A stretch of DNA of 64,000 nucleotides from Fibrobacterota bacterium. Lineage in GTDB: Bacteria > Fibrobacterota > Fibrobacteria > UBA11236. The stretch lies in the NCBI GenBank assembly GCA_023249635.1, contig JAHFCH010000011.1, positions 671 to 64,670 on the forward strand. Reading direction: 5' to 3'. The position numbers and the translations under genes are program-made. The notes below the pieces were generated by a model. That model made no database searches. It was given only the letters and a program-made list of their open reading frames with translations, and was not told the DNA's origin. Shown here one piece after another: positions 5,390 through 62,790 of this stretch; the first letter of the stretch is position 1, and each line of letters opens with the position of its first letter.

Positions 5390-5464
5390 TGGAGGCGACA
5401 AGCGGATTCGAACCGCTGAATAAAGCTTTTGCAGAGCTCTCCCTTACCACTTGGGTATGTCGCC
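5390..5464 (-). tRNA. tRNA-Cys (anticodon GCA)
   Basis: Reverse complement reads GGCGACA..TTCGAATCC..TGTCGCC-T-CCA. Acceptor stem pairs 7/7; T-arm AGCGG/TTCGAAT/CCGCT; anticodon stem GAGCT/AGCTT with loop CTGCAAA (anticodon GCA); U discriminator typical of tRNA-Cys; encoded CCA. Confidence 0.75.
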
Positions 5465-5625: not shown

Positions 5626-6714
5626 ATGGTTACCATAGGGCTGACCGCTGCTGCCCATGCGGCATCCGCTAAAGTGGAATCCCCCAAAGGCCCCAGCCGT
5701 ATGGCGGTGCTTGAGTTCGTGGATCTCACGGACAACTCGCAAAAGCCCGATGTCGCCGACCTGATGCGCAAGACCCTGGGGGCTACAGGCAACTGGACCG
5801 TGTTGCCCCGCGATTCCGTAGCGAAACGCCTGGGTGAATTCAACATCAATCCCCATCAAAGCTGCAACAATCCCCAATGCAGTTTCGACATAGGCAACGT
5901 GGTCCAAGCCGAGTACGTGCTCTTCGGCACCGCGTCACCCCTAGCCTCCGTGCAGGCCGTTACCTTGAAACTACTGCATATCCCCTCCGCCAAAATCGTA
6001 TGGACCAAGGTGTTGGAGGCCGAGGGCGGCAGCGAATCGGACCGCATGCGCAGCCTGGAGAAGGCCTTCTCGGGGGCGGCTTCGGAAATGGCGAAGGTAA
6101 AGCCCGATCAAGACAAGGCCAAGCACGGCAAATCCCTGGCGGTGATCGATCTGAGCGAGAACTCGCCCCAGTCCCGGGCCTTCTTCGAGCGGGTTTGCAC
6201 CCGTGTGTACGGCAATACCGCGTTCGATCTCATGAGCCCGACCGAGCTCACCGAACTGCTTACCGCGTTGGAGATCAACAAATACTCCGTGGTACCTTCG
6301 CTTGAGAACATGATCGGGCTCGGGCAGAAGCTCGGGGTATCCAATCTGCTCTACTCGCGACTCTATCGCGACGGGCGTAGTTATATCTATCGACTCGCGA
6401 TGTACGACGTGTCCGGAAAGGCCCTCGTCCTCGAGTTGCCCCCCCAACCCTCCGAAGACATCATCAAATTACTGGACTATGAAAAGGTTTTTTTCAATAC
6501 TCTATTCAGCAAAGAAAAAGACGCGCCCAACCAGGCCGTCGTCAAGGACGGTAGCAAATCCAACAAGGCACTTTGGATCTCCCTAGGCGTACTGGGCATC
6601 GGGGGCGGCGTTGCCGCCTACTGGGTGGAAAACCTCCGCAAGCCGGACAAAGGCGCCAACGGCAACAATCAAGCGATTCCTTTCCCGAAAAATCCACCCG
6701 ACGTCAAGGATTGA
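5626..6714 (+). CDS. Hypothetical exported protein with two tandem repeat halves and a C-terminal TM anchor
   Basis: Signal peptide MVTIGLTAAAHAASA (a TTG at 5572 would give a better charged n-region); two halves each with a V(A/L)V(L/I)-x-F/L-x-D/E-x-(T/S) core reminiscent of CsgG/LpoB-like lipoprotein folds; C-terminal TM ALWISLGVLGIGGGVAAYWV; no lipobox Cys. Confidence 0.45.
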   Translation: MVTIGLTAAAHAASAKVESPKGPSRMAVLEFVDLTDNSQKPDVADLMRKTLGATGNWTVLPRDSVAKRLGEFNINPHQSCNNPQCSFDIGNVVQAEYVLFGTASPLASVQAVTLKLLHIPSAKIVWTKVLEAEGGSESDRMRSLEKAFSGAASEMAKVKPDQDKAKHGKSLAVIDLSENSPQSRAFFERVCTRVYGNTAFDLMSPTELTELLTALEINKYSVVPSLENMIGLGQKLGVSNLLYSRLYRDGRSYIYRLAMYDVSGKALVLELPPQPSEDIIKLLDYEKVFFNTLFSKEKDAPNQAVVKDGSKSNKALWISLGVLGIGGGVAAYWVENLRKPDKGANGNNQAIPFPKNPPDVKD

Positions 6715-6766
6715 TGCGGGCGGGCTACGGGCTATGCCGATTTCAATATATTTTTAGGGACCCATT

Positions 6767-8014
6767 ATGAGCGATACGAATTTCAGCTACATGGAAGTTT
6801 CCGCGAAACGCAAGAAGCGGAACCAGTTCATCTCCGTCCTCATCATCGTGGCCATCGTATTGATGGGCGTGATCGTGTGGGGTTGGATCGAACTGCAGAA
6901 AAGCCGCAACGCGGAGCGGATCAAGAACGCCCTGAACAGCCAGGTGGAACCGGGCTTCAAGGAATCGGAAGGCGGTATGGAGCCGCCTATCGATACCGGT
7001 ACCCTCACCGTGCAGGATACGGTTCCTGTTGCCGTCCCGCCGAAACCGGTGGTGGAAACCCCGGCTCCGGTGAAGCCGCCCGAACCCGTGGCCGTAAAAC
7101 CGAAGCCGCGTAAGGAACAGGTCAAGGCCGTCGATCTGCCCAAGGAACCTGAACCAGTGGCCGTGGCTCCCGTTGTCGAACCGCCGAAACCGAAACCCGC
7201 TCCGGTCAAGCCTCCTGAACCCGTGGCCGTGAAGCCCAAGCCTGAACCGGTCGTCGTCGCCATGCACAAACCGGATCCCATCCCGGCCAACCCCACGCCC
7301 AAGCCGGCGCCGACACCCGCCAAGGTTTATCCTCCCGAGGATCTGCCCCTGCCAGAGAAGCCGGAAGCCACTGAAGAGGTCAAGAACGCCGTCGCGGCGA
7401 TTCCCGCGCCTGCCATGCCCGCTCCCACCGCGGCCACGCCGGCCGATGGGGCAGCCGGCTCGACCAATTTCAAGACCGGCATGTCGGCTTACCGCCAGCA
7501 GGATTACGTGAACGCCATCCGTTCCTTCTCGTCGGTGCCGAAGCCCGTTTCCAAGAAACGCGGCGATGCGGATCGGGACGAATACGTGCAAGCCAATTTC
7601 CTTAAGGGCCTCGCGCTCCTCAAGGTGGGGCACCTGAGCGAAGCCGTGAGCGCGTTCCAGAACGTACTCGAGTACGAAAAATACTATCCCCTGGCGAATA
7701 TGAACCTGGGCATCTGCTACGTGGAGTTGAAGCAATATGCCAAGGCGCACCAGGCCTTCGAGGCGGTCGTCCGCGACCAGAGCTTCATCGATCCCGCCGC
7801 CTTCGACGACGTGATGCAGCGTACCAAGTACTTCTGGGCCCTGGCCTGGACCCGCTTGTACAAGAATGCCACCAACCCGGACAAGCAGAACTTCTACCGC
7901 CAACAGGCGATGCTCAAGTGGAAAGATTACGAAGTCTGGTTTTCCAAGAACGACAAGTATAAGAGCGAGAATCTGAAGGCCGAGAATTACCTCAAGAGCC
8001 TCAGCAGCCTATGA
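6767..8014 (+). CDS. Membrane-anchored protein: N-terminal TM, Pro/Lys-rich extended linker, C-terminal TPR domain (TolA/CpoB-like architecture)
   Basis: N-terminal TM FISVLIIVAIVLMGVIVWGWI; about 200 aa of PxxP/KP repeats including duplicated VKPPEPVAVKPKP; C-terminal TPR-like helices; AGGGA 8 nt before the ATG. Confidence 0.6.
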   Translation: MSDTNFSYMEVSAKRKKRNQFISVLIIVAIVLMGVIVWGWIELQKSRNAERIKNALNSQVEPGFKESEGGMEPPIDTGTLTVQDTVPVAVPPKPVVETPAPVKPPEPVAVKPKPRKEQVKAVDLPKEPEPVAVAPVVEPPKPKPAPVKPPEPVAVKPKPEPVVVAMHKPDPIPANPTPKPAPTPAKVYPPEDLPLPEKPEATEEVKNAVAAIPAPAMPAPTAATPADGAAGSTNFKTGMSAYRQQDYVNAIRSFSSVPKPVSKKRGDADRDEYVQANFLKGLALLKVGHLSEAVSAFQNVLEYEKYYPLANMNLGICYVELKQYAKAHQAFEAVVRDQSFIDPAAFDDVMQRTKYFWALAWTRLYKNATNPDKQNFYRQQAMLKWKDYEVWFSKNDKYKSENLKAENYLKSLSSL

Positions 8015-8020
8015 GGATCA

Positions 8021-8200
8021 TTTGTTTACGCGGCGAGCATGGAGTCGCGAAGCGGTTCCATGGCGAAGCCGCCAAGTTGGATTCAATTTGCGGCGAGCGT
8101 GGAGTTGCGAAGCAACTCCATAGCGAAGCCGCCACTGTTGCTCTTAAATGCGGCGAGCGTGGAGTTGCGAAGCAACTCCATAGCGAAGCCGCCACTGTCA
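8021..8200. repeat. 3 x 60-bp tandem direct repeats, each carrying a 9-bp perfect-stem hairpin (TGGAGTTGC-gaa-GCAACTCCA)
   Basis: Units at 8021, 8081 and 8141; copies 2 and 3 are near-identical and copy 1 is diverged; they start right after the stop of the TPR gene and end 17 nt before the TolB-like start. Confidence 0.85.
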
Positions 8201-8217
8201 GGGAGAAAAGGGTTTCC

Positions 8218-9519
8218 ATGATGATCAGGATGCTGAATTGTGCCTGGCTTTTTGCGGTGGCCGCGGTAACGGCGGGCGCCGGCTTCGGGGCCGAAGCCAC
8301 CGATGCGAGCAAAACCGTGGTCGTCGTTTCCAGCGACAACCCGAAGATCTCGGGGCAATTGTTCCACCCCAAGATCTGCCCGAACCTGGTCAATTACGTG
8401 GCTTTTGTGCGCCAGATCCGGGACAACCGGCAAATCTGGTTGTACGACGCGAAGACCAAGGAATTGACCCAGGTTTCGCCGCGTGCGGCTACCAGCAAGA
8501 TCGAGGACGTCAACATCGACGAGGATACCGATCAAAGCATCTTCAAGGGCTACGAGGATGAGTTGGAATGGTGCCCGGTCCTGCACGATGGCATCCAATA
8601 CTACGTGTACGTGAGCGCCGGCGGAGTCAACAACCACGACGTGTACATCGGTTCCATCGGCGGCAAGCAGCATACCCGGCTGACCTTCGATCCCGAGGTC
8701 GACGGCACCCCGCGCTGGTCCCCGGACGGCAAGAGTCTGACCTTCGTCTCGGCCCGCACCGGCGACGGCGACCTGTACCTGGTCGCTGACATCACCAAGT
8801 ACCTGGGCAAGGATATCAAGCGCGAGGCCAAGGGCGCCTTCGAGCGCCTGACCACCAATCCCGGCGAAGAAATGTTCCCTTCCTATTCGCCCGACGGCCG
8901 CTTCCTGGCCTACACCACCCGCACCAGCGGCAACAAAAAGCGCGGCCTGTACACCATCGCCCTGATGGATTTCAAGGACGAGAAGAAGATCAAGATCTTC
9001 AACAACCAGATCACCAACAACAAAAGCCATCCGTCCTGGTCCTTCGACGGCCACTTCGTAGCCTACCAAATCTCCAATGACCTGAATGATCGGGTAGTGG
9101 ATATCGGCGTTATGCAATTGAAGGTCGACCCCCAAGGCCACTTGGTCGAGGTCGCCGATCTGCACGGCAAGACGCCGAAGATCGCCGAGAACGTGTATCC
9201 GAGCTCCTACACCGGGCCTACCTGGCTGCCGGGCTCGCGCGCCATCGTGTACGCAAAGCGCGAGTCCAGCCGGTTGAATCCGCTGGAGGTGGTGAACCTG
9301 GAGAAATGGCTCTACGATCAGAATTACACCCGGGCCACCATTACGACTCAGTCGAACATCCACCGCGACGTGGATTGCCTTCCCAATCATCCGATCATCG
9401 TATTCGCGGGACAATCGGGCCTGGAATTCCAGATTTTCGCTTCCGTCCTGATCGGCGCCGATCTCAGGTTGGGCGCAGAAAAGGTGGATGTGGCCAAGTA
9501 TGACCTTTTCAAGAACTAA
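8218..9519 (+). CDS. TolB-like periplasmic PD40 beta-propeller protein
   Basis: Signal peptide MMIRMLNCAWLFAVAAVTAGA; repeated PD40 motifs (TPRWSPDGKSLTFVS, FPSYSPDGRFLAYTT, SHPSWSFDGHFVAY). ATG 8218 chosen over ORF-track 8011 because the signal peptide would otherwise be internal and the 5' part is the tandem repeat. Confidence 0.6.
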   Translation: MMIRMLNCAWLFAVAAVTAGAGFGAEATDASKTVVVVSSDNPKISGQLFHPKICPNLVNYVAFVRQIRDNRQIWLYDAKTKELTQVSPRAATSKIEDVNIDEDTDQSIFKGYEDELEWCPVLHDGIQYYVYVSAGGVNNHDVYIGSIGGKQHTRLTFDPEVDGTPRWSPDGKSLTFVSARTGDGDLYLVADITKYLGKDIKREAKGAFERLTTNPGEEMFPSYSPDGRFLAYTTRTSGNKKRGLYTIALMDFKDEKKIKIFNNQITNNKSHPSWSFDGHFVAYQISNDLNDRVVDIGVMQLKVDPQGHLVEVADLHGKTPKIAENVYPSSYTGPTWLPGSRAIVYAKRESSRLNPLEVVNLEKWLYDQNYTRATITTQSNIHRDVDCLPNHPIIVFAGQSGLEFQIFASVLIGADLRLGAEKVDVAKYDLFKN

Positions 9520-10924
9520 GGGTCTGCTCCTTTTCCTGTTCGCGGCGTCCTATCTCCCGAGCGAAGGAAAAGAAGACCCCGTAGAGCTCATCCGGAGGCA
9601 TCGTTACGACGAGGCCATTTCCTCCTGGGACCAGGATCTCCAGGGCGGAAAGTTGGATGAGAAAGGCTTACGAGCCCTCAAGGGCAAGTCCTTGGCGTAT
9701 TTCCGCCTCGGCAGCTTATATGGGGTCTATTCAGGTTTCGCGAATGCGATCATGGCCGAATACTACACAGCATTGATTGAGACCGGCGCCAGCGCCATCC
9801 ATTACCTGTACCTGGGACAGATCCAGTATCAGGGCGGGAAGTTCGCGGACGCGAAGTCTTCTTTCGAGAAGGCGAAGAAGTTGGGCGGCGCAGTCCCCGG
9901 CATTCTGGAGATAAACGACGTCTTCCTCTACTTCGCGAAGAAGCGTTTGGGCGAATCGGCTGAAGTTCCGGTGAGCAAGGACAATGGCGCGCTTTGGGAG
10001 ACCCTCGATCTCAAGCCGGGTCCCGCCGACCTTGCCCAGAGCCTGACGGCACAATCCCAGCGCGGCCGCCGCTGCAGGTTGTCGGTAATGATCCGCGCTA
10101 ATGGGGCCGTGCCTGGGGACATCGAGACGATGCTGAAGGCGGTCTTGAACGATGCCCAACAGCCGGAAATGTACCTGGATCAGGGGAAGAACACCCAGAT
10201 AAACTTCTACGACCCCTTCCTGATGGAAACGCTTTCGGATACGTACTACACTCTGAGCAAATTGACGAATCTCCGCATCAAGGAAGAGGAGAAGCGCTTT
10301 CCCGACCTCGCGGCGAAGTTCAACACCGACCAGGCACTGGCGGAATCGTGCCTCCGCCTGAGTCAGTACAAAGAGGCGAGCTCGTACCTCGCCAAGGATG
10401 GCGGTGACGTCGAAGCGCAATTGGTGAAGGCCCAGGTGCTGGCGCATTCCAATAAGGTGAACGAGGCGAAAGCGTTGCTGGAGACGGTCTCGGAAAGCAC
10501 CAAAAACCCCTCGGACAGGAGGGATATCGCGGACTGTTACTATCTTTTAGGGTTTGACTTGGATAAGGGTTTGAAGCTGGCGGGCCTAGCCGTTAAGGAG
10601 AAAAACGGACCGAATTACTACCGGACCTTCGCCAACCTGCTTTTCGCGACCGGTCAGACCGAAACCGCGATGCAGCAATACGCCAAGGGTTACAAGATCG
10701 AGTATCGCAATCGTATCGATCAGATCGACCCGGAGTATATGACGGACTATGCATTCGCTATTTTCAAGACGAATAAGCTGAGGTACGAGGAGATCGTGGA
10801 AACCCTTTACCATCTCCAGAAGGAGTTCCCGGCTTGCAGGCAGATGCACTATTGCATGCAGGGGATTTCGGCGGGGTTGGCGCGGAGCTACGAATCCCAA
10901 CGGATTTTCCGAAAGGGTGGCTGA
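9500..10924 (+). CDS. TPR-like repeat protein (exported)
   Basis: AAGGTGG 12 nt before ATG 9500 (alternative ATG at 9488); signal-like N-terminus KGLLLFLFAAS; helical-repeat composition throughout; overlaps the TolB-like gene end by about 20 nt. Confidence 0.5.
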   Translation: MTFSRTKGLLLFLFAASYLPSEGKEDPVELIRRHRYDEAISSWDQDLQGGKLDEKGLRALKGKSLAYFRLGSLYGVYSGFANAIMAEYYTALIETGASAIHYLYLGQIQYQGGKFADAKSSFEKAKKLGGAVPGILEINDVFLYFAKKRLGESAEVPVSKDNGALWETLDLKPGPADLAQSLTAQSQRGRRCRLSVMIRANGAVPGDIETMLKAVLNDAQQPEMYLDQGKNTQINFYDPFLMETLSDTYYTLSKLTNLRIKEEEKRFPDLAAKFNTDQALAESCLRLSQYKEASSYLAKDGGDVEAQLVKAQVLAHSNKVNEAKALLETVSESTKNPSDRRDIADCYYLLGFDLDKGLKLAGLAVKEKNGPNYYRTFANLLFATGQTETAMQQYAKGYKIEYRNRIDQIDPEYMTDYAFAIFKTNKLRYEEIVETLYHLQKEFPACRQMHYCMQGISAGLARSYESQRIFRKGG

Positions 10925-21437: not shown

Positions 21438-22513
21438 AACCGGCCGCTGCCAAGCCGCCCTCCTTCGTCGTACATAATTCCAATTCCGAAATCGGCGGAG
21501 CCGAAGCCAGTCTGCTTGCGGCTGTGGCGGTAAACCTCGCGACCGTAGCCGATGCCCGACCGCTTTTCCTGGTACCCGCCGAAGGCGGCCTTTCCCGCGC
21601 CCTTACCGCGCGCGGCTGGGAGTTCCGCGTCCTGCCATGGCCTCGCGGCCTCGCAGCCCTGACCCAGCGGCGTTTGTGGTCGCTGCCCTTGGCTTTGCCG
21701 GGACTGTTGCCTTACCTGTGGCGCTTGCGGGGGGTTTTCCGGGATGCGGACTCCATCTGGTCCAGCGGCGTCAAAAGCCATTTCGCCTGCCTGCTGCTTT
21801 CGCCCTGGCTGCGCGGCCGGCTCCTCTTTGACGTGCGCGATTTCTTCCGCAACCGGCTCATCCGCCGCTCCCTGGCCTTCGCCTCCGCGCGCTTCGGCTG
21901 CCGTATCGCCGCCAACAGCCGGGCCGTGGCCGCGGATTATCCCGGCGCCGAGGTACGTTACCCGCAGGTTACGCTGCGACGTCCCGCCGTGGACCGCCGG
22001 GTTCCTTCTGGACGTCGCGTAATCGCCCACTTGGCCTACTTCGCCCCCTACAAGGGCCAGCATCTGTTCCTGGATTGCGCCCGGGCCCTGCTCGACGCGG
22101 GCGTGGACGCCGAATTCCTGATCATCGGGGACGTGATTTATCCCGCCGAGTCGTATGCGCGCTATCGCGAAGAGCTGTTCGCCCAGGTAGGCCGCTTGCG
22201 CCTTAACGAGCACGTGCGTTTCCTGGGGAAGCTGGATGGCCCGGAGGCGGTACAGGAGATACTGGAGCGGACCGATCTGCTGCTGCACTGCACCACCGAA
22301 CCCGAACCCTTCGGCCGCGCGGTGATGGAAGCCCTGCTATGCGGGTGCGCAGCGGTATGCCATGGGGGCAGCGGCGTGTGTGAGGTGACGGAAGCGGAGC
22401 GGGGATTCCCGGGGTGGATGGGACCGCTCGGGAAGGTGTTGGGGGAGGAGTACGTGAGGGTGCGGTTGAGTGACGATATCGTCGGGCGTCGGGCGTCGGG
22501 CGTCGGGCGTTAA
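21434..22513 (+). CDS. Glycosyltransferase family 1 (GT4-type); 3' end runs into a repeat element
   Basis: GTG start overlapping the upstream stop (GTGA); C-terminal GT1 core (EPFGRAVMEALLCGCAAVC); last ~12 codons (..VGRRASGVGR) are encoded by GTCGGGC heptads of the palindromic element. Confidence 0.6.
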   Translation: MKPAAAKPPSFVVHNSNSEIGGAEASLLAAVAVNLATVADARPLFLVPAEGGLSRALTARGWEFRVLPWPRGLAALTQRRLWSLPLALPGLLPYLWRLRGVFRDADSIWSSGVKSHFACLLLSPWLRGRLLFDVRDFFRNRLIRRSLAFASARFGCRIAANSRAVAADYPGAEVRYPQVTLRRPAVDRRVPSGRRVIAHLAYFAPYKGQHLFLDCARALLDAGVDAEFLIIGDVIYPAESYARYREELFAQVGRLRLNEHVRFLGKLDGPEAVQEILERTDLLLHCTTEPEPFGRAVMEALLCGCAAVCHGGSGVCEVTEAERGFPGWMGPLGKVLGEEYVRVRLSDDIVGRRASGVGR

Positions 22514-22599
22514 AACTGTGGATTGGTCCTTGTGCGGATTCCCGTTTTAACGCCCGACGCCTAGCCGCGCAGCGGCGTACGCCCGACGCCCGACGATAT
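22475..22599. repeat. MITE/REP-like palindromic element, GTCGGGC-heptad family, copy 1
   Basis: Perfect 20-bp terminal inverted repeats (GATATCGTCGGGCGTCGGGCG .. CGCCCGACGCCCGACGATAT); nested perfect 16-bp inverted repeat (CGTCGGGCGTTAAAAC/GTTTTAACGCCCGACG); extra small hairpin GCCGCgcaGCGGC; four tandem GTCGGGC heptads. Confidence 0.75.
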
Positions 22600-22632
22600 G
22601 CCTGAACGGGAATATCTCATTCCAGCACCGGA

Positions 22633-50669: not shown

Positions 50670-51613
50670 TTTTTGATCACCGAGGTAATCACGAACCAGG
50701 CCGTGAGGAACGTGACCATGTCGCGCATGATATCGAGGGTCTTGGTCCAAGTGACCACCTTGGCGTACATGATGATCATGTCGCCCTCTCCCAGCAGGGG
50801 CAGGTCTTCGGTCTTACCGTTGTCGATGAACTTCTGCATATCCAGCACGTAGTCGGCCTTTTGCCCGCCCAGCGCCGAGATGATGCGCACCTTGTGCATG
50901 TTGGCGTCCGGGGCCGGCCCGCCGGCCAGGTAGAGCATGTCGAATACGGAAGCCTGTTCGCCCACGGGGTAGAACCCGGGCTTGCTGACCGCCCCGAGGA
51001 TTTTCACGTACTTGGATTTCTTGGAGGAGAGCAGAATGATGCGATCGCCATCGTACAAGGTCGGCAACAGCGTCAGGTCGCCCGAGCTCAGGAACTTCTG
51101 CAAGTCGTAGTAGCTGGCGTTCTCGTCGCCCTGGTTCTTACGCACGATCTTGACGCGCTGCAGGTCCGCGGTCTCGAGGCTGCCGCCGGCGGCCAGCATT
51201 ACTTCCTGCAGGCTGGCCTTGGGGGGCATCATCAGTACGCCGGGTTTCTTGACCTGGCCCAGCACGTAAAGGGAAATGGGATTCTCGGTCAATACGCTCA
51301 CCAGCACCATCGGCGACTCCACCACTTTGGCGAGTTTGTAGGTGAGGATGTCTTGCAACTCGCTGGTGGTCTTGTCGACCACGGGTACGTCCTGGTAGAG
51401 CGGGTAATCGATGGTGCCGTTATCGTTCACGCGCACGATCTGGGAAAGCTCTTTGTCGTTCTTCACCACGATGTTCAAGGTCATCCCGGATTTGATCACG
51501 GTCGCGGCGCAAGGCGAACTCAAAATGAAAAGTGAAAACTGAAAAATGAAGACGGAAAGGAATGCGAATCCTGTCCCGATGGCGGTTTGCACTTTGAAAT
51601 TTTCACTTTTCAT
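50666..51613 (-). CDS. wza: Polysaccharide export outer-membrane protein (Wza-like)
   Basis: Signal peptide, Poly_export-like region (..TLNIVVKNDKELSQIVRVNDNGTIDYPL..), two SLBB-like segments; ATGA overlap with wzc. Confidence 0.75.
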   Translation of the reverse strand: MKSENFKVQTAIGTGFAFLSVFIFQFSLFILSSPCAATVIKSGMTLNIVVKNDKELSQIVRVNDNGTIDYPLYQDVPVVDKTTSELQDILTYKLAKVVESPMVLVSVLTENPISLYVLGQVKKPGVLMMPPKASLQEVMLAAGGSLETADLQRVKIVRKNQGDENASYYDLQKFLSSGDLTLLPTLYDGDRIILLSSKKSKYVKILGAVSKPGFYPVGEQASVFDMLYLAGGPAPDANMHKVRIISALGGQKADYVLDMQKFIDNGKTEDLPLLGEGDMIIMYAKVVTWTKTLDIMRDMVTFLTAWFVITSVIKK

Positions 51614-51628
51614 TTTTCACTCTAGGCT
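51518..51628. repeat. AT-rich palindromic element, GTGAAAA-heptad family, copy 1 (spans wza start codon and signal-peptide codons)
   Basis: Left arm AAAATGAAAAGTGAAAACTGAAAAATGAAGA (encodes FIFQFSLFIL on the minus strand); right arm TTTCACTTTTCATTTTTCACTC (contains the wza ATG); 17+ bp of complementarity between arms. Confidence 0.7.
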
Positions 51629-54593: not shown

Positions 54594-54681
54594 GGGTTTA
54601 AGGTCTAAGGTTTAAGGTGGGGGAATTCAACGCCGTGAACATTCCCCTTAAACCTTTAACCTTAAACCTTAAACCTTCTTC
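54594..54681. repeat. Palindromic element, GGTTTAA-heptad family, copy 2
   Basis: GGTTTAAGGTCTAAGGTTTAAGGTGGGGG - 20 nt - CCCCTTAAACCTTTAACCTTAAACCTTAAACC; upstream of exbB and of the divergent gene starting 54817. Confidence 0.7.
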
Positions 54682-54816
54682 AATCCCCGGTTTTCCCCTG
54701 TTTTCCCACAAATTTCCTCCTTTTCCAGCCCCGGTTCCCTTGTGCAAACAGCCCCTTCGCGGTATATTGCTTACTTATACGGACACGGTTTCCCCAACCG
54801 GTTTAAGGAAGGATTT

Positions 54817-61903: not shown

Positions 61904-62030
61904 CATATCGTCGGGCGTCGGGCGTACGGGGCGAAGCGCCCCTAAGCGTCGGGCGTAAATGCGAAAATGCTCCCATTTTCTTGCATTTACGCCCGACGCC
62001 GAACGCCCGACGCCAAACGATGCGCTGCTA
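61904..62030. repeat. MITE/REP-like palindromic element, GTCGGGC-heptad family, copy 2 (inverted orientation, more degenerate)
   Basis: CATATCGTCGGGCGTCGGGCG .. GGGGCGaagCGCCCC .. CGTCGGGCGTAAATGC / GCATTTACGCCCGACG .. CGCCCGACGCCAAACGATG; same terminal 20-mer as copy 1 on the left, degenerate on the right. Confidence 0.7.
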
Positions 62031-62663: not shown

Positions 62664-62790
62664 AGGGCTAAAAGTGAAAAAGGAAAAGTGAAAAATTAAA
62701 AAATCAAATTTTTGTATGTCGCTGGCGGGTTAGGGTCCGCCCTCCCGGTTTTTCACTTTCCATTTTTCACTTTGATTTTTTAGCCCCAGC
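62664..62790. repeat. AT-rich palindromic element, GTGAAAA-heptad family, copy 2
   Basis: CTAAAAGTGAAAAAGGAAAAGTGAAAAATT .. GC-rich centre (GGCGGGttagggtCCGCC) .. TTTTTCACTTTCCATTTTTCACTTTG; the right arm is 22/24 identical to the wza-overlapping copy. Confidence 0.7.

Follow-up and report, generated by a model that had tools for sequence, protein, structure and literature searches.

Mycobacterial interspersed repetitive units (MIRUs; Supply et al. 1997, as summarised in PMC3184786) are tandem units of 40-100 bp, variable in number, which lie between the cistrons of polycistronic operons; according to that summary they carry GC-rich internal inverted repeats, and the ends of their open reading frames (ORFs) overlap the flanking genes, which suggests translational coupling. 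The repetitive extragenic palindromes (REPs) and bacterial interspersed mosaic elements (BIMEs) of Enterobacteria and Pseudomonas are GC-rich imperfect palindromes that may be clustered between operon genes, are transcribed and can affect mRNA stability (PMC3184786). The Rickettsia palindromic elements (RPEs; Ogata et al. 2000, as cited in PMC3184786) are inserted in frame in coding sequence and, in the terms of that citation, tolerated as extra peptide. The present work deals with an array of three hairpin repeats in a 64,000-nt stretch of DNA from an uncultured Fibrobacterota bacterium (assembly GCA_023249635.1, contig JAHFCH010000011.1, positions 671 to 64,670 of the forward strand). This whole stretch is called the window, and positions are counted from its first letter. 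The array fills the junction between a TPR gene and a PD40 gene of the + strand, a co-transcribed and apparently translationally coupled pair of envelope genes. The comparison of orthologous junctions shows it to be a single-locus, vertically inherited and copy-number-variable module, i.e., a sense-strand RNA hairpin that is always translatable in the downstream frame. Judging from the sequences compared, it is probably translated in the PD40 frame and is not a simple untranslated leader.

The array is an orphan in-frame structured intercistronic variable-number tandem repeat (VNTR) and is a member of none of the families compared (MIRU, REP/BIME, RPE, CRISPR, terminator, Rfam). By analogy, it would work most like MIRUs and REP-type or other intercistronic stem-loops, and its in-frame aspect recalls the RPEs. 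The likeness to MIRUs concerns: (i) the tandem units, of 57-60 nt; (ii) the copy number, 0-3 among relatives; (iii) the ORF starting on the upstream stop codon. However, MIRUs occupy about 40-50 loci per genome in Mycobacterium, with target duplications like those of MITEs (miniature transposable elements with inverted repeats), whereas the array occupies one locus, in Fibrobacteria, and has no sequence similarity to them. Moreover its ORF, unlike those of MIRUs, continues in frame into the downstream gene.

REPs and the array are both short GC-rich palindromes between operon genes, but the array lies inside a conserved open frame and not in DNA that is clearly extragenic. REPs are extragenic, untranslated and dispersed in hundreds of copies, usually in alternating orientation within BIMEs, whereas the array is single-locus, in direct tandem and in frame. 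Work by Liang, Rudd and Deutscher in 2015 reportedly found that a REP near the stop codon can influence how the upstream gene is translated. Like the RPEs, the array is a palindrome of which the frame is always kept, its translation being predicted; RPEs are 105-146 bp long, are spread across many genes and are not in tandem, whereas the array has tandem units of 57-60 nt at one junction. Intercistronic or RNase III-type hairpins (malE-malF REP, puf operon, early mRNA of phage T7) set differing amounts of upstream and downstream products post-transcriptionally. Those of the array are likewise stable and placed between cistrons, and an asymmetric internal loop is also found in some of the known ones. 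Nevertheless, the malE-malF, puf and T7 hairpins are untranslated and not copy-number variable, and a role of the array in cleavage or stabilisation is putative.

A sense-strand RNA hairpin under purifying selection

The array is made of three head-to-tail units of 60 nt at 8030-8209, the copies starting at 8030, 8090 and 8150 in a repeat search. Tandem Repeats Finder reports it at 8030-8198 (period 60, 2.8 copies, 87% matches, score 240). The same three copies are present in L001, an independent assembly from another sample; a third assembly (L002) breaks inside unit 2. The three tandem 60-bp hairpin repeats that the initial annotation of this DNA had seen in the TPR-PD40 junction are therefore real, on the basis of both repeat searches, of folding and of the second assembly. 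However, their limits had to be moved. The unit starts had been given as 8021, 8081 and 8141, whereas the string quoted for them, CGGCGAGCG, begins at 8031, 8091 and 8151, i.e., 10 nt out of phase. In the same manner the array had been placed 6 nt past the upstream stop, whereas the first hairpin begins 15 nt after the stop codon (8012-8014).

In the window, each unit consists of a 44-nt GC-rich hairpin core and a 16-nt AU-rich linker. The order of the core is GCGGC-GA-GCG-UGGAGUUGC-GAA-GCAACUCCA-U-A-GC-GAA-GCCGC-C. As RNA it folds into one compound hairpin of 17 pairs, i.e., a 5-bp outer GCGGC/GCCGC stem and a 12-bp inner helix, with a 2x3 purine internal loop, one bulged A in the inner helix and a GAA triloop. 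The folding energy lies between -25 and -28.4 kcal/mol per unit, with z between -4.0 and -6.0 with reference to shuffled sequences. The 9-bp stem first described corresponds to a perfect inverted repeat with a 3-nt loop (TGGAGTTGC/GCAACTCCA, at 8100-8120 and 8160-8180), which is present in units 2 and 3 but is only a part of this larger hairpin.

On the + strand, an AU-rich 5' flank (8014-8029) separates the overlapping start from hairpin 1, which starts 19 nt past the A of the ATG. Hairpin 1 (8030-8073; outer GCGGC/GCCGC; -25 kcal/mol, z = -4.0) is the diverged copy. Then come an AU-rich linker of 16 nt (8074-8089), hairpin 2 with its GAA loop (8090-8133; 9-bp core at 8100-8108 and 8112-8120; -28.4 kcal/mol, z = -5.7), a second AU-rich linker of 16 nt (8134-8149) and hairpin 3, identical to hairpin 2 (8150-8193; core at 8160-8168 and 8172-8180; -28.4 kcal/mol, z = -6.0). 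The 3' flank (8194-8217) contains a purine-rich ribosome-binding region, GGGAGAAAAGGG (8201-8212).

Units 2 and 3 had been called nearly identical, and they are identical over 49 nt. The 44-mer core is found with 0 mismatches at 8090-8133 and 8150-8193, which is reproduced by none of 100 shuffles; a degenerate pattern additionally recovers 8030-8073. Unit 1 had been described as diverged and as having lost its stem. The divergence is confirmed (8 of the 44 core positions differ from the other copies), but the stem is not lost: in RNA all 9 stem pairs are retained, by means of two G·U wobbles and one compensatory change from U-A to C-G. The presence of two GCGAAGC heptamers per unit is also confirmed. 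This heptamer was rejected as a genome-wide motif: there are 31 sites for 19 expected, but 6 of the 31 are inside the array, and apart from these it is unremarkable. No U-tract follows any of the hairpins (the units are followed by AAGUUGG, ACUGUUG and ACUGUCA) and a terminator scan reports no unit. The proposal of a transcriptional attenuator is abandoned for want of this U-tract.

The selection on the hairpin was estimated from mean pairwise differences among element-bearing species. The PD40 gene differs by 42% at four-fold degenerate sites and by 3.5% at codon positions 1+2. The orthologous hairpin differs by 18% overall (16.5% for paired and 23.6% for unpaired positions) and the adjacent linkers by 43-46%, i.e., about the neutral rate. 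Thus the hairpin is constrained and the linkers are not. When the structure is imposed on the + strand, 92.5% of the cells are paired, with 13 one-sided G·U cells, and four pairs are changed on both sides (U-A to C-G twice, A-U to G-C, G-C to A-U). The mirror structure on the - strand gives 83.4% of paired cells and two wobble cells. All the full units (11 of 11) share one fold, more stable in the sense than in the antisense orientation. Of the two arms, the G/U-rich 5' one shows twice the conservation of the 3' one, as would follow from a tolerance of C/U and A/G changes opposite G and U. Since G·U and compensatory changes preserve pairing on the sense strand only, the selected object is an mRNA structure. 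These comparisons show purifying selection on the hairpin as a sense-strand RNA structure.

Occurrence and history of the element

The repeat had been thought specific to this leader, and it is indeed junction-specific and not dispersed according to searches of the window, relatives, metagenomes, viruses and peptides. Within the 64-kb window, the 44-mer and the degenerate pattern match 8030-8193 only; in the loci retrieved from relatives they match the orthologous junction only. A covariance model (R1, 11 units) run over the 249 kb of window and relatives recovers the syntenic copies only, the next best match having E = 0.5. The pattern scan of JGI metagenome contigs gives 16 matches, of which two are true and syntenic (L032 and L033, identical); the remaining 14 are chance matches in high-GC coding DNA. 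No match is found in the pattern scan of IMG/VR viruses. An exact 34-mer scan of genome contigs also gives 0 matches, the query being too strict. With Rfam, only tRNA-Cys reaches the gathering threshold in the window, and a permissive scan of 7900-8320 gives nothing near threshold; the nearest match, a Mycobacterium sRNA model, has 21 bits for a gathering score of 44 and is noise. At the peptide level, no related repeat was found by phmmer with the 69-aa extension encoded by the array among 1.84 billion representative proteins, and a word-indexed protein search with the same query gave no candidates. The single-locus claim covers 64 kb of the source genome, about 185 kb of relatives and one metagenome pattern scan.

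The phmmer matches at E = 1e-8 to 1e-4 are a false lead. They are TPR_12-type proteins as well as the ORFs P0107 and P0115, and the P0107 ORF runs across a CRISPR array beside cas2 in L048, of which the repeat, GCTGTGGCTTGCGGGGAATCGTCGCTCGGATACACT, is ~52% identical to the hairpin. It must be noticed that this CRISPR array (1015-2622 of L048, adjoining cas2) is publicly annotated as a 459-aa protein; it came up here solely because of a fortuitous likeness of peptides. A CRISPR nature of the present array was considered and rejected: (i) the "spacers" would be only 13-16 nt long and are homologous among themselves and with the 5' flank, whereas CRISPR spacers are unique and of about 21-72 nt, with cas genes usually close by; (ii) the array sits between two conserved genes; (iii) the match to the L048 repeat, by hand comparison, is the ~52% of nucleotides mentioned above.

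Copy-number variation, another expectation of the initial annotation, is found among relatives, from 0 to 3 units. No unit is present (stop + 23 nt + ATG) in L006, L007, L010, L011, L017, L021, L040 and more distant relatives, and L003 has only a truncated 20-nt outer stem. One unit is found in L008, L009, L020 and L039, a truncated plus one unit in L032, two units in L004 and in P0080 (the latter seen at the protein level only), a truncated plus two units in L005, and three units in the source window. Two loci carry a deletion scar: in L050 the first 8 nt of the hairpin are joined at a GAG microhomology, and L049 has a 21-nt junction without GGGAG. Across relatives the unit length is 57-60 nt, i.e., a 44-nt hairpin plus an AU-rich linker of 13-16 nt.

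A neighbour-joining tree built on the PD40 coding sequence places all element loci in one clade (80% bootstrap), the zero-copy L007 and L006 being just outside. Losses are nested within it, L049 having L039 as its sister and L050 having L005 (100% bootstrap each). The zero-copy L040 is sister to the window (72% bootstrap). In the simplest history, the element was gained once in one Fibrobacteria clade and then underwent duplications, truncations and two or three losses. In JGI sample 3300056388, two close PD40 relatives are found together, P0080 (two-unit array, 480-aa call) and the unit-free P0069. The P0069 junction has a 17-nt spacer from TPR stop to PD40 start; its sequence was read from L049, which comes from another sample and has the same P0069 protein, and in which 21 nt separate the overlapping start from the ATG. 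The pair hints at copy-number differences between co-existing strains.

A copy number of 0 to 3, repeated losses, truncations removing the inner palindrome and the deletion at a microhomology (GAG junction, L050) are what a selfish or neutral palindromic tandem repeat would leave, i.e., a functionless element like MIRU, REP or RPE, inserted once in the first PD40 codons and driven by slippage, with frameshifts and stops filtered by the host ORF. In-frame insertions of RPEs and intercistronic MIRU VNTRs with overlapping ORFs are known, as far as reported in PMC3184786. However, the present element was found at one locus and is not dispersed; across species its hairpin changes about three times more slowly than neutral sites, the linkers being neutral; and the sense-strand G·U bias is not predicted by drift or by strand-symmetric DNA processes. 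We consider this explanation unlikely, although it keeps an appreciable weight.

Reading frame and probable translation of the array

The ATG at 8011-8013 (+ strand) overlaps the TPR stop (ATGA) and opens an ORF which runs through the repeats into the PD40 gene. This extended ORF (8011-9519, + strand) has 502 aa, namely a 69-aa N-terminal extension encoded by the array (net charge +5) and the PD40 pre-protein, and it is called as such in a public assembly. From the conserved ATG, the PD40 beta-propeller gene (Pfam PD40) extends over 8218-9519 of the + strand; tblastn matches begin at residue 1, and the PD40 homologues begin at the position equivalent to 8218.

The array is open in two frames, as noticed at the start, but only the PD40 frame is kept among relatives. 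Counted from the overlapping start, the conserved AUG (8218) lies a whole number of codons away in 11 of 11 junctions with a unit, a remnant or a scar (207, 66, 147, 180, 87, 90, 87, 90, 126, 21 and 42 nt); the distance is 27 nt in zero-copy loci. The segments themselves vary in length (5' flank 19, 22 or 25 nt, hairpin 44 or 20 nt, linker 13 or 16 nt, 3' flank 21, 24 or 27 nt), all hairpins are in one codon phase, and none of about 9-12 separate indel or duplication events is out of frame. Unit lengths of 57 or 60 nt are multiples of 3, so a change in copy number cannot shift the frame, and the phase switch once envisaged is discarded. There are 0 stop triplets in the PD40 frame for 27 in the other two frames (10 and 17). 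With shuffled linkers, the chance of an open frame is 0.16-0.64 per locus, with a product over loci of 5e-5.

Of the 11 junctions with an element or a scar, 7 have ATGA at the TPR stop and the other four have TTGA; in three of these four an ATG lies one or two codons further, and one has TTG only. L039 and L049 are gene-called from the short start yet retain the open frame, thus the pattern is not a bias of ORF calling. No minus-strand frame is consistently open across relatives, and the minus-strand ORF at 8001-8393 was rejected for this reason. A kept frame, 0 in-frame stops and a start codon on or near the upstream stop constitute comparative evidence that points to translation through the repeats. 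The initial annotation had taken 8218 as the start and the ORF from 8011 as an artefact of gene callers. The first part is supported by a conserved, ancestral Shine-Dalgarno sequence (SD) and AUG; the second is hardly compatible with a frame kept in 11 of 11 junctions and with 0 versus 27 stops.

Several points weigh against this interpretation. Conservation at the nucleotide level extends to the ATG at 8218 and to the purine-rich GAGAAAAGG, the latter in loci with the element and in zero-copy loci alike, and outgroups have a GGAGG- or AAGGA-type SD at the position equivalent to GAGAAAAGG. In outgroups and in L006 (overlap codon CTA), 8218 is the sole possible start; this start is thus ancestral and presumably still used. 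With such a conserved SD and AUG downstream, the upstream start may be minor, and no SD precedes the ATG at 8011. Since the loci share ancestry, the frame statistics rest on ~9-12 independent indel events and not on 11 loci, and are approximate. Translation from 8011 is probable on comparative evidence, and any effect on coupling or stability would be deduced from position and structure. With two or three losses at the least, and with only a truncated 20-nt stem retained in L003, any function of the element is dispensable. Finally, template-switch "quasi-palindrome correction" can yield compensatory changes in palindromes without selection. A distinct idea, the sequestration of the SD by a GGAGA/UUUCC mini-hairpin seen in a 241-nt fold, was rejected, the pairing being not conserved in loci with GGTTTGCC.

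The SD and AUG at 8218, conserved everywhere and sole start in outgroups and L006, the ATG at 8011 devoid of SD and the selection of the hairpin as RNA and not as peptide would all agree with an untranslated intercistronic leader, i.e., a platform for RNA processing, stability or protein binding, PD40 starting only at 8218 and the open frame being a coincidence. Such a coincidence leaves unexplained that all indels are multiples of 3, that linkers evolving at the neutral rate have 27 stop triplets off-frame and 0 in the PD40 frame, and that a start codon is retained at or beside the upstream stop. A purely untranslated leader is thus rather improbable.

The frame that is always open, with every hairpin in the same codon phase, and some conservative replacements (K to R, changes of Leu codons) could instead reflect a functional 20-residue peptide repeat (consensus GERGVAKQLHSEAA), which would give the PD40 protein a membrane anchor or a cytoplasmic domain at its N-terminus. 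But the variation is not 3-periodic. The variable columns at codon positions 1, 2 and 3 number 4, 7 and 6, many third positions are invariant, and the synonymous to non-synonymous changes are 12:24, i.e., 33% synonymous for 24% by chance. Selection at the peptide level was rejected on this basis. In addition, the residues encoded by the linkers are unconstrained, no related peptide was found among the 1.84 billion proteins searched, and the truncated and zero-copy relatives are otherwise intact; a peptide function is very improbable. As to a DNA-level element, in which 21-bp palindromes (TGGAGTTGC-GAA-GCAACTCCA) 60 bp apart would be operators of a dimeric protein or cruciform sites, the perfect inverted repeats, their regular spacing and GCGAAGC, a motif forming a very stable DNA mini-hairpin, are in its favour, but the strand-asymmetric one-sided changes (13 sense versus 2 antisense wobble cells), the twofold difference in conservation between the arms, in favour of the 5' one, and the location of the array inside an operon, between coupled genes, with no promoter-like site in 6500-9800, leave it hardly any credit.

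We thus retain coupled translation through the array as the working interpretation. Ribosomes ending the TPR gene would begin anew at the overlapping start codon, translate the hairpins and continue into the PD40 gene. The product would be a pre-PD40 protein with a longer, positively charged n-region, and the signal peptidase would remove the extension. The extension is hydrophilic in all variants (net charge 0 to +7) and is compatible with a cytoplasmic n-region ahead of the signal peptide, MMIRMLNCAWLFAVAAVTAGAGFGAEA, which is encoded at ~8218-8298. If it is removed with the signal peptide, both starts yield the same mature protein. The conserved SD and AUG at 8218 would still permit independent initiation. 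The hairpins may be a brake or gate for the coupled ribosomes and prevent scanning to 8218 after termination; alternatively or additionally, they may be stem-loops that serve mRNA stability or processing. The copy number of the unit would then determine the ratio of PD40 to TPR protein. A review (PMC12548453) reports that translational coupling is lowered by RNA structure close behind the stop of the upstream gene and that it decays with distance. The whole chain, i.e., re-initiation, read-through, removal of the extension and hairpins tuning coupling and/or mRNA stability, is put forward tentatively, with a little less than an even chance of being right throughout.

A more specific version is a "coupling rheostat": a heritable, translated VNTR in which the number of units splits the ribosomes between the stop-overlapping AUG and the downstream SD and AUG, and in which the GAA loop and the purine internal loop might be recognised by an RNA-binding protein or RNase. 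It is speculative and we find it doubtful. If it were true, a change in copy number would be an evolvable, frame-neutral retuning of the stoichiometry of two envelope proteins.

Three features usually found apart are present here at one orthologous site in several species: (i) a selected mRNA structure; (ii) tandem copy-number variation; (iii) strict conservation of the frame. If the proposed reading holds, hairpins would be tolerated between the re-initiation start and the canonical start because the extension leaves with the signal peptide, and the number of repeats could tune translational coupling. Gene callers disagree on the start of the PD40 orthologues (502, 461, 481 or 432 aa), and short-read assemblies break at the junction, which is thus a useful test case for start-codon annotation in metagenome-assembled genomes (MAGs).

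Gene setting and other features of the window

The upstream gene (6767-8014, + strand, stop TGA at 8012-8014) encodes a membrane-anchored, proline-rich TPR protein of 415 aa (Pfam TPR_2/TPR_16; the Pfam scan covered eight ORFs of the window). The two proteins had been named "TolA/CpoB-like" and "TolB-like", which are loose labels. The TPR protein resembles YbgF/CpoB weakly (30 bits for an NCBIfam cut-off of 90) and the PD40 protein resembles TolB weakly (95 bits for a cut-off of 343), both scores being far below the cut-offs; the matches of the PD40 protein in the PDB are TolB propellers (E = 1e-10). The TPR-PD40 gene pair is syntenic in 20 of 20 Fibrobacteria loci, all from MAGs. TamB-like, Omp85/POTRA and PEGA genes are found upstream of the TPR gene, and another TPR gene, then a solute-binding protein gene, downstream of the PD40 gene. 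The 3' end of the PD40 gene and the beginning of this next TPR gene share 20-32 nt (9488-9519), according to the start taken for the latter, so that the cluster as a whole looks translationally coupled. A scan of 6500-9800 gave no promoter-like site.

A fusion of the TPR and PD40 proteins by read-through or by -1 frameshift was rejected: the TPR frame stops in most relatives and no slippery heptamer precedes the stop. In one JGI contig, a public gene call (P0092, 731 aa) merges the TPR and PD40 genes in one ORF. Its C-terminal TPR part is read in another frame, and the fusion most likely reflects a frameshift introduced in sequencing or assembly. A weak 5-bp hairpin, CCUCA/UGAGG, surrounds the TPR stop and the overlapping ATG (7999-8016) and is followed by AUCAUUUGUU; it is flagged by the terminator scan, at a rate below shuffled expectation. 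A tRNA-Cys(GCA) gene lies on the - strand at 5390-5464, with the PEGA-domain gene on one side and, on the other, the following + strand ORF of the envelope cluster.

Two families of dispersed palindromes are also present in the window. The copies of the first (22478-22600 and 61905-62025, ~120 nt) are framed by GATATCG...CGATAT, with CGTCGGG heptamer repeats in the left arm and complementary CCCGACG repeats in the right arm. Each lies just past the 3' end of a + strand ORF, and the second copy has a central GGGGCGAAGCGCCCC mini-hairpin; they are probably terminator-like or MITE/REP-like elements. The copies of the second (51522-51625 and 62669-62785, about 105-115 nt) are in AT-rich intergenic DNA near gene ends, with arms (AAAAGTGA/AAAATGA)n and (TCACTTTT/TCATTTT)n around a GC-rich centre. 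As these two unrelated families are each found twice, dispersed families at such a density are detectable in the window. Lastly, Tandem Repeats Finder reports three tandem arrays (GGTTTAA x3.4, CCTTAAA x4.6 and TCCCCGGTTT x2.4) within 110 nt of intergenic DNA at 54595-54707.

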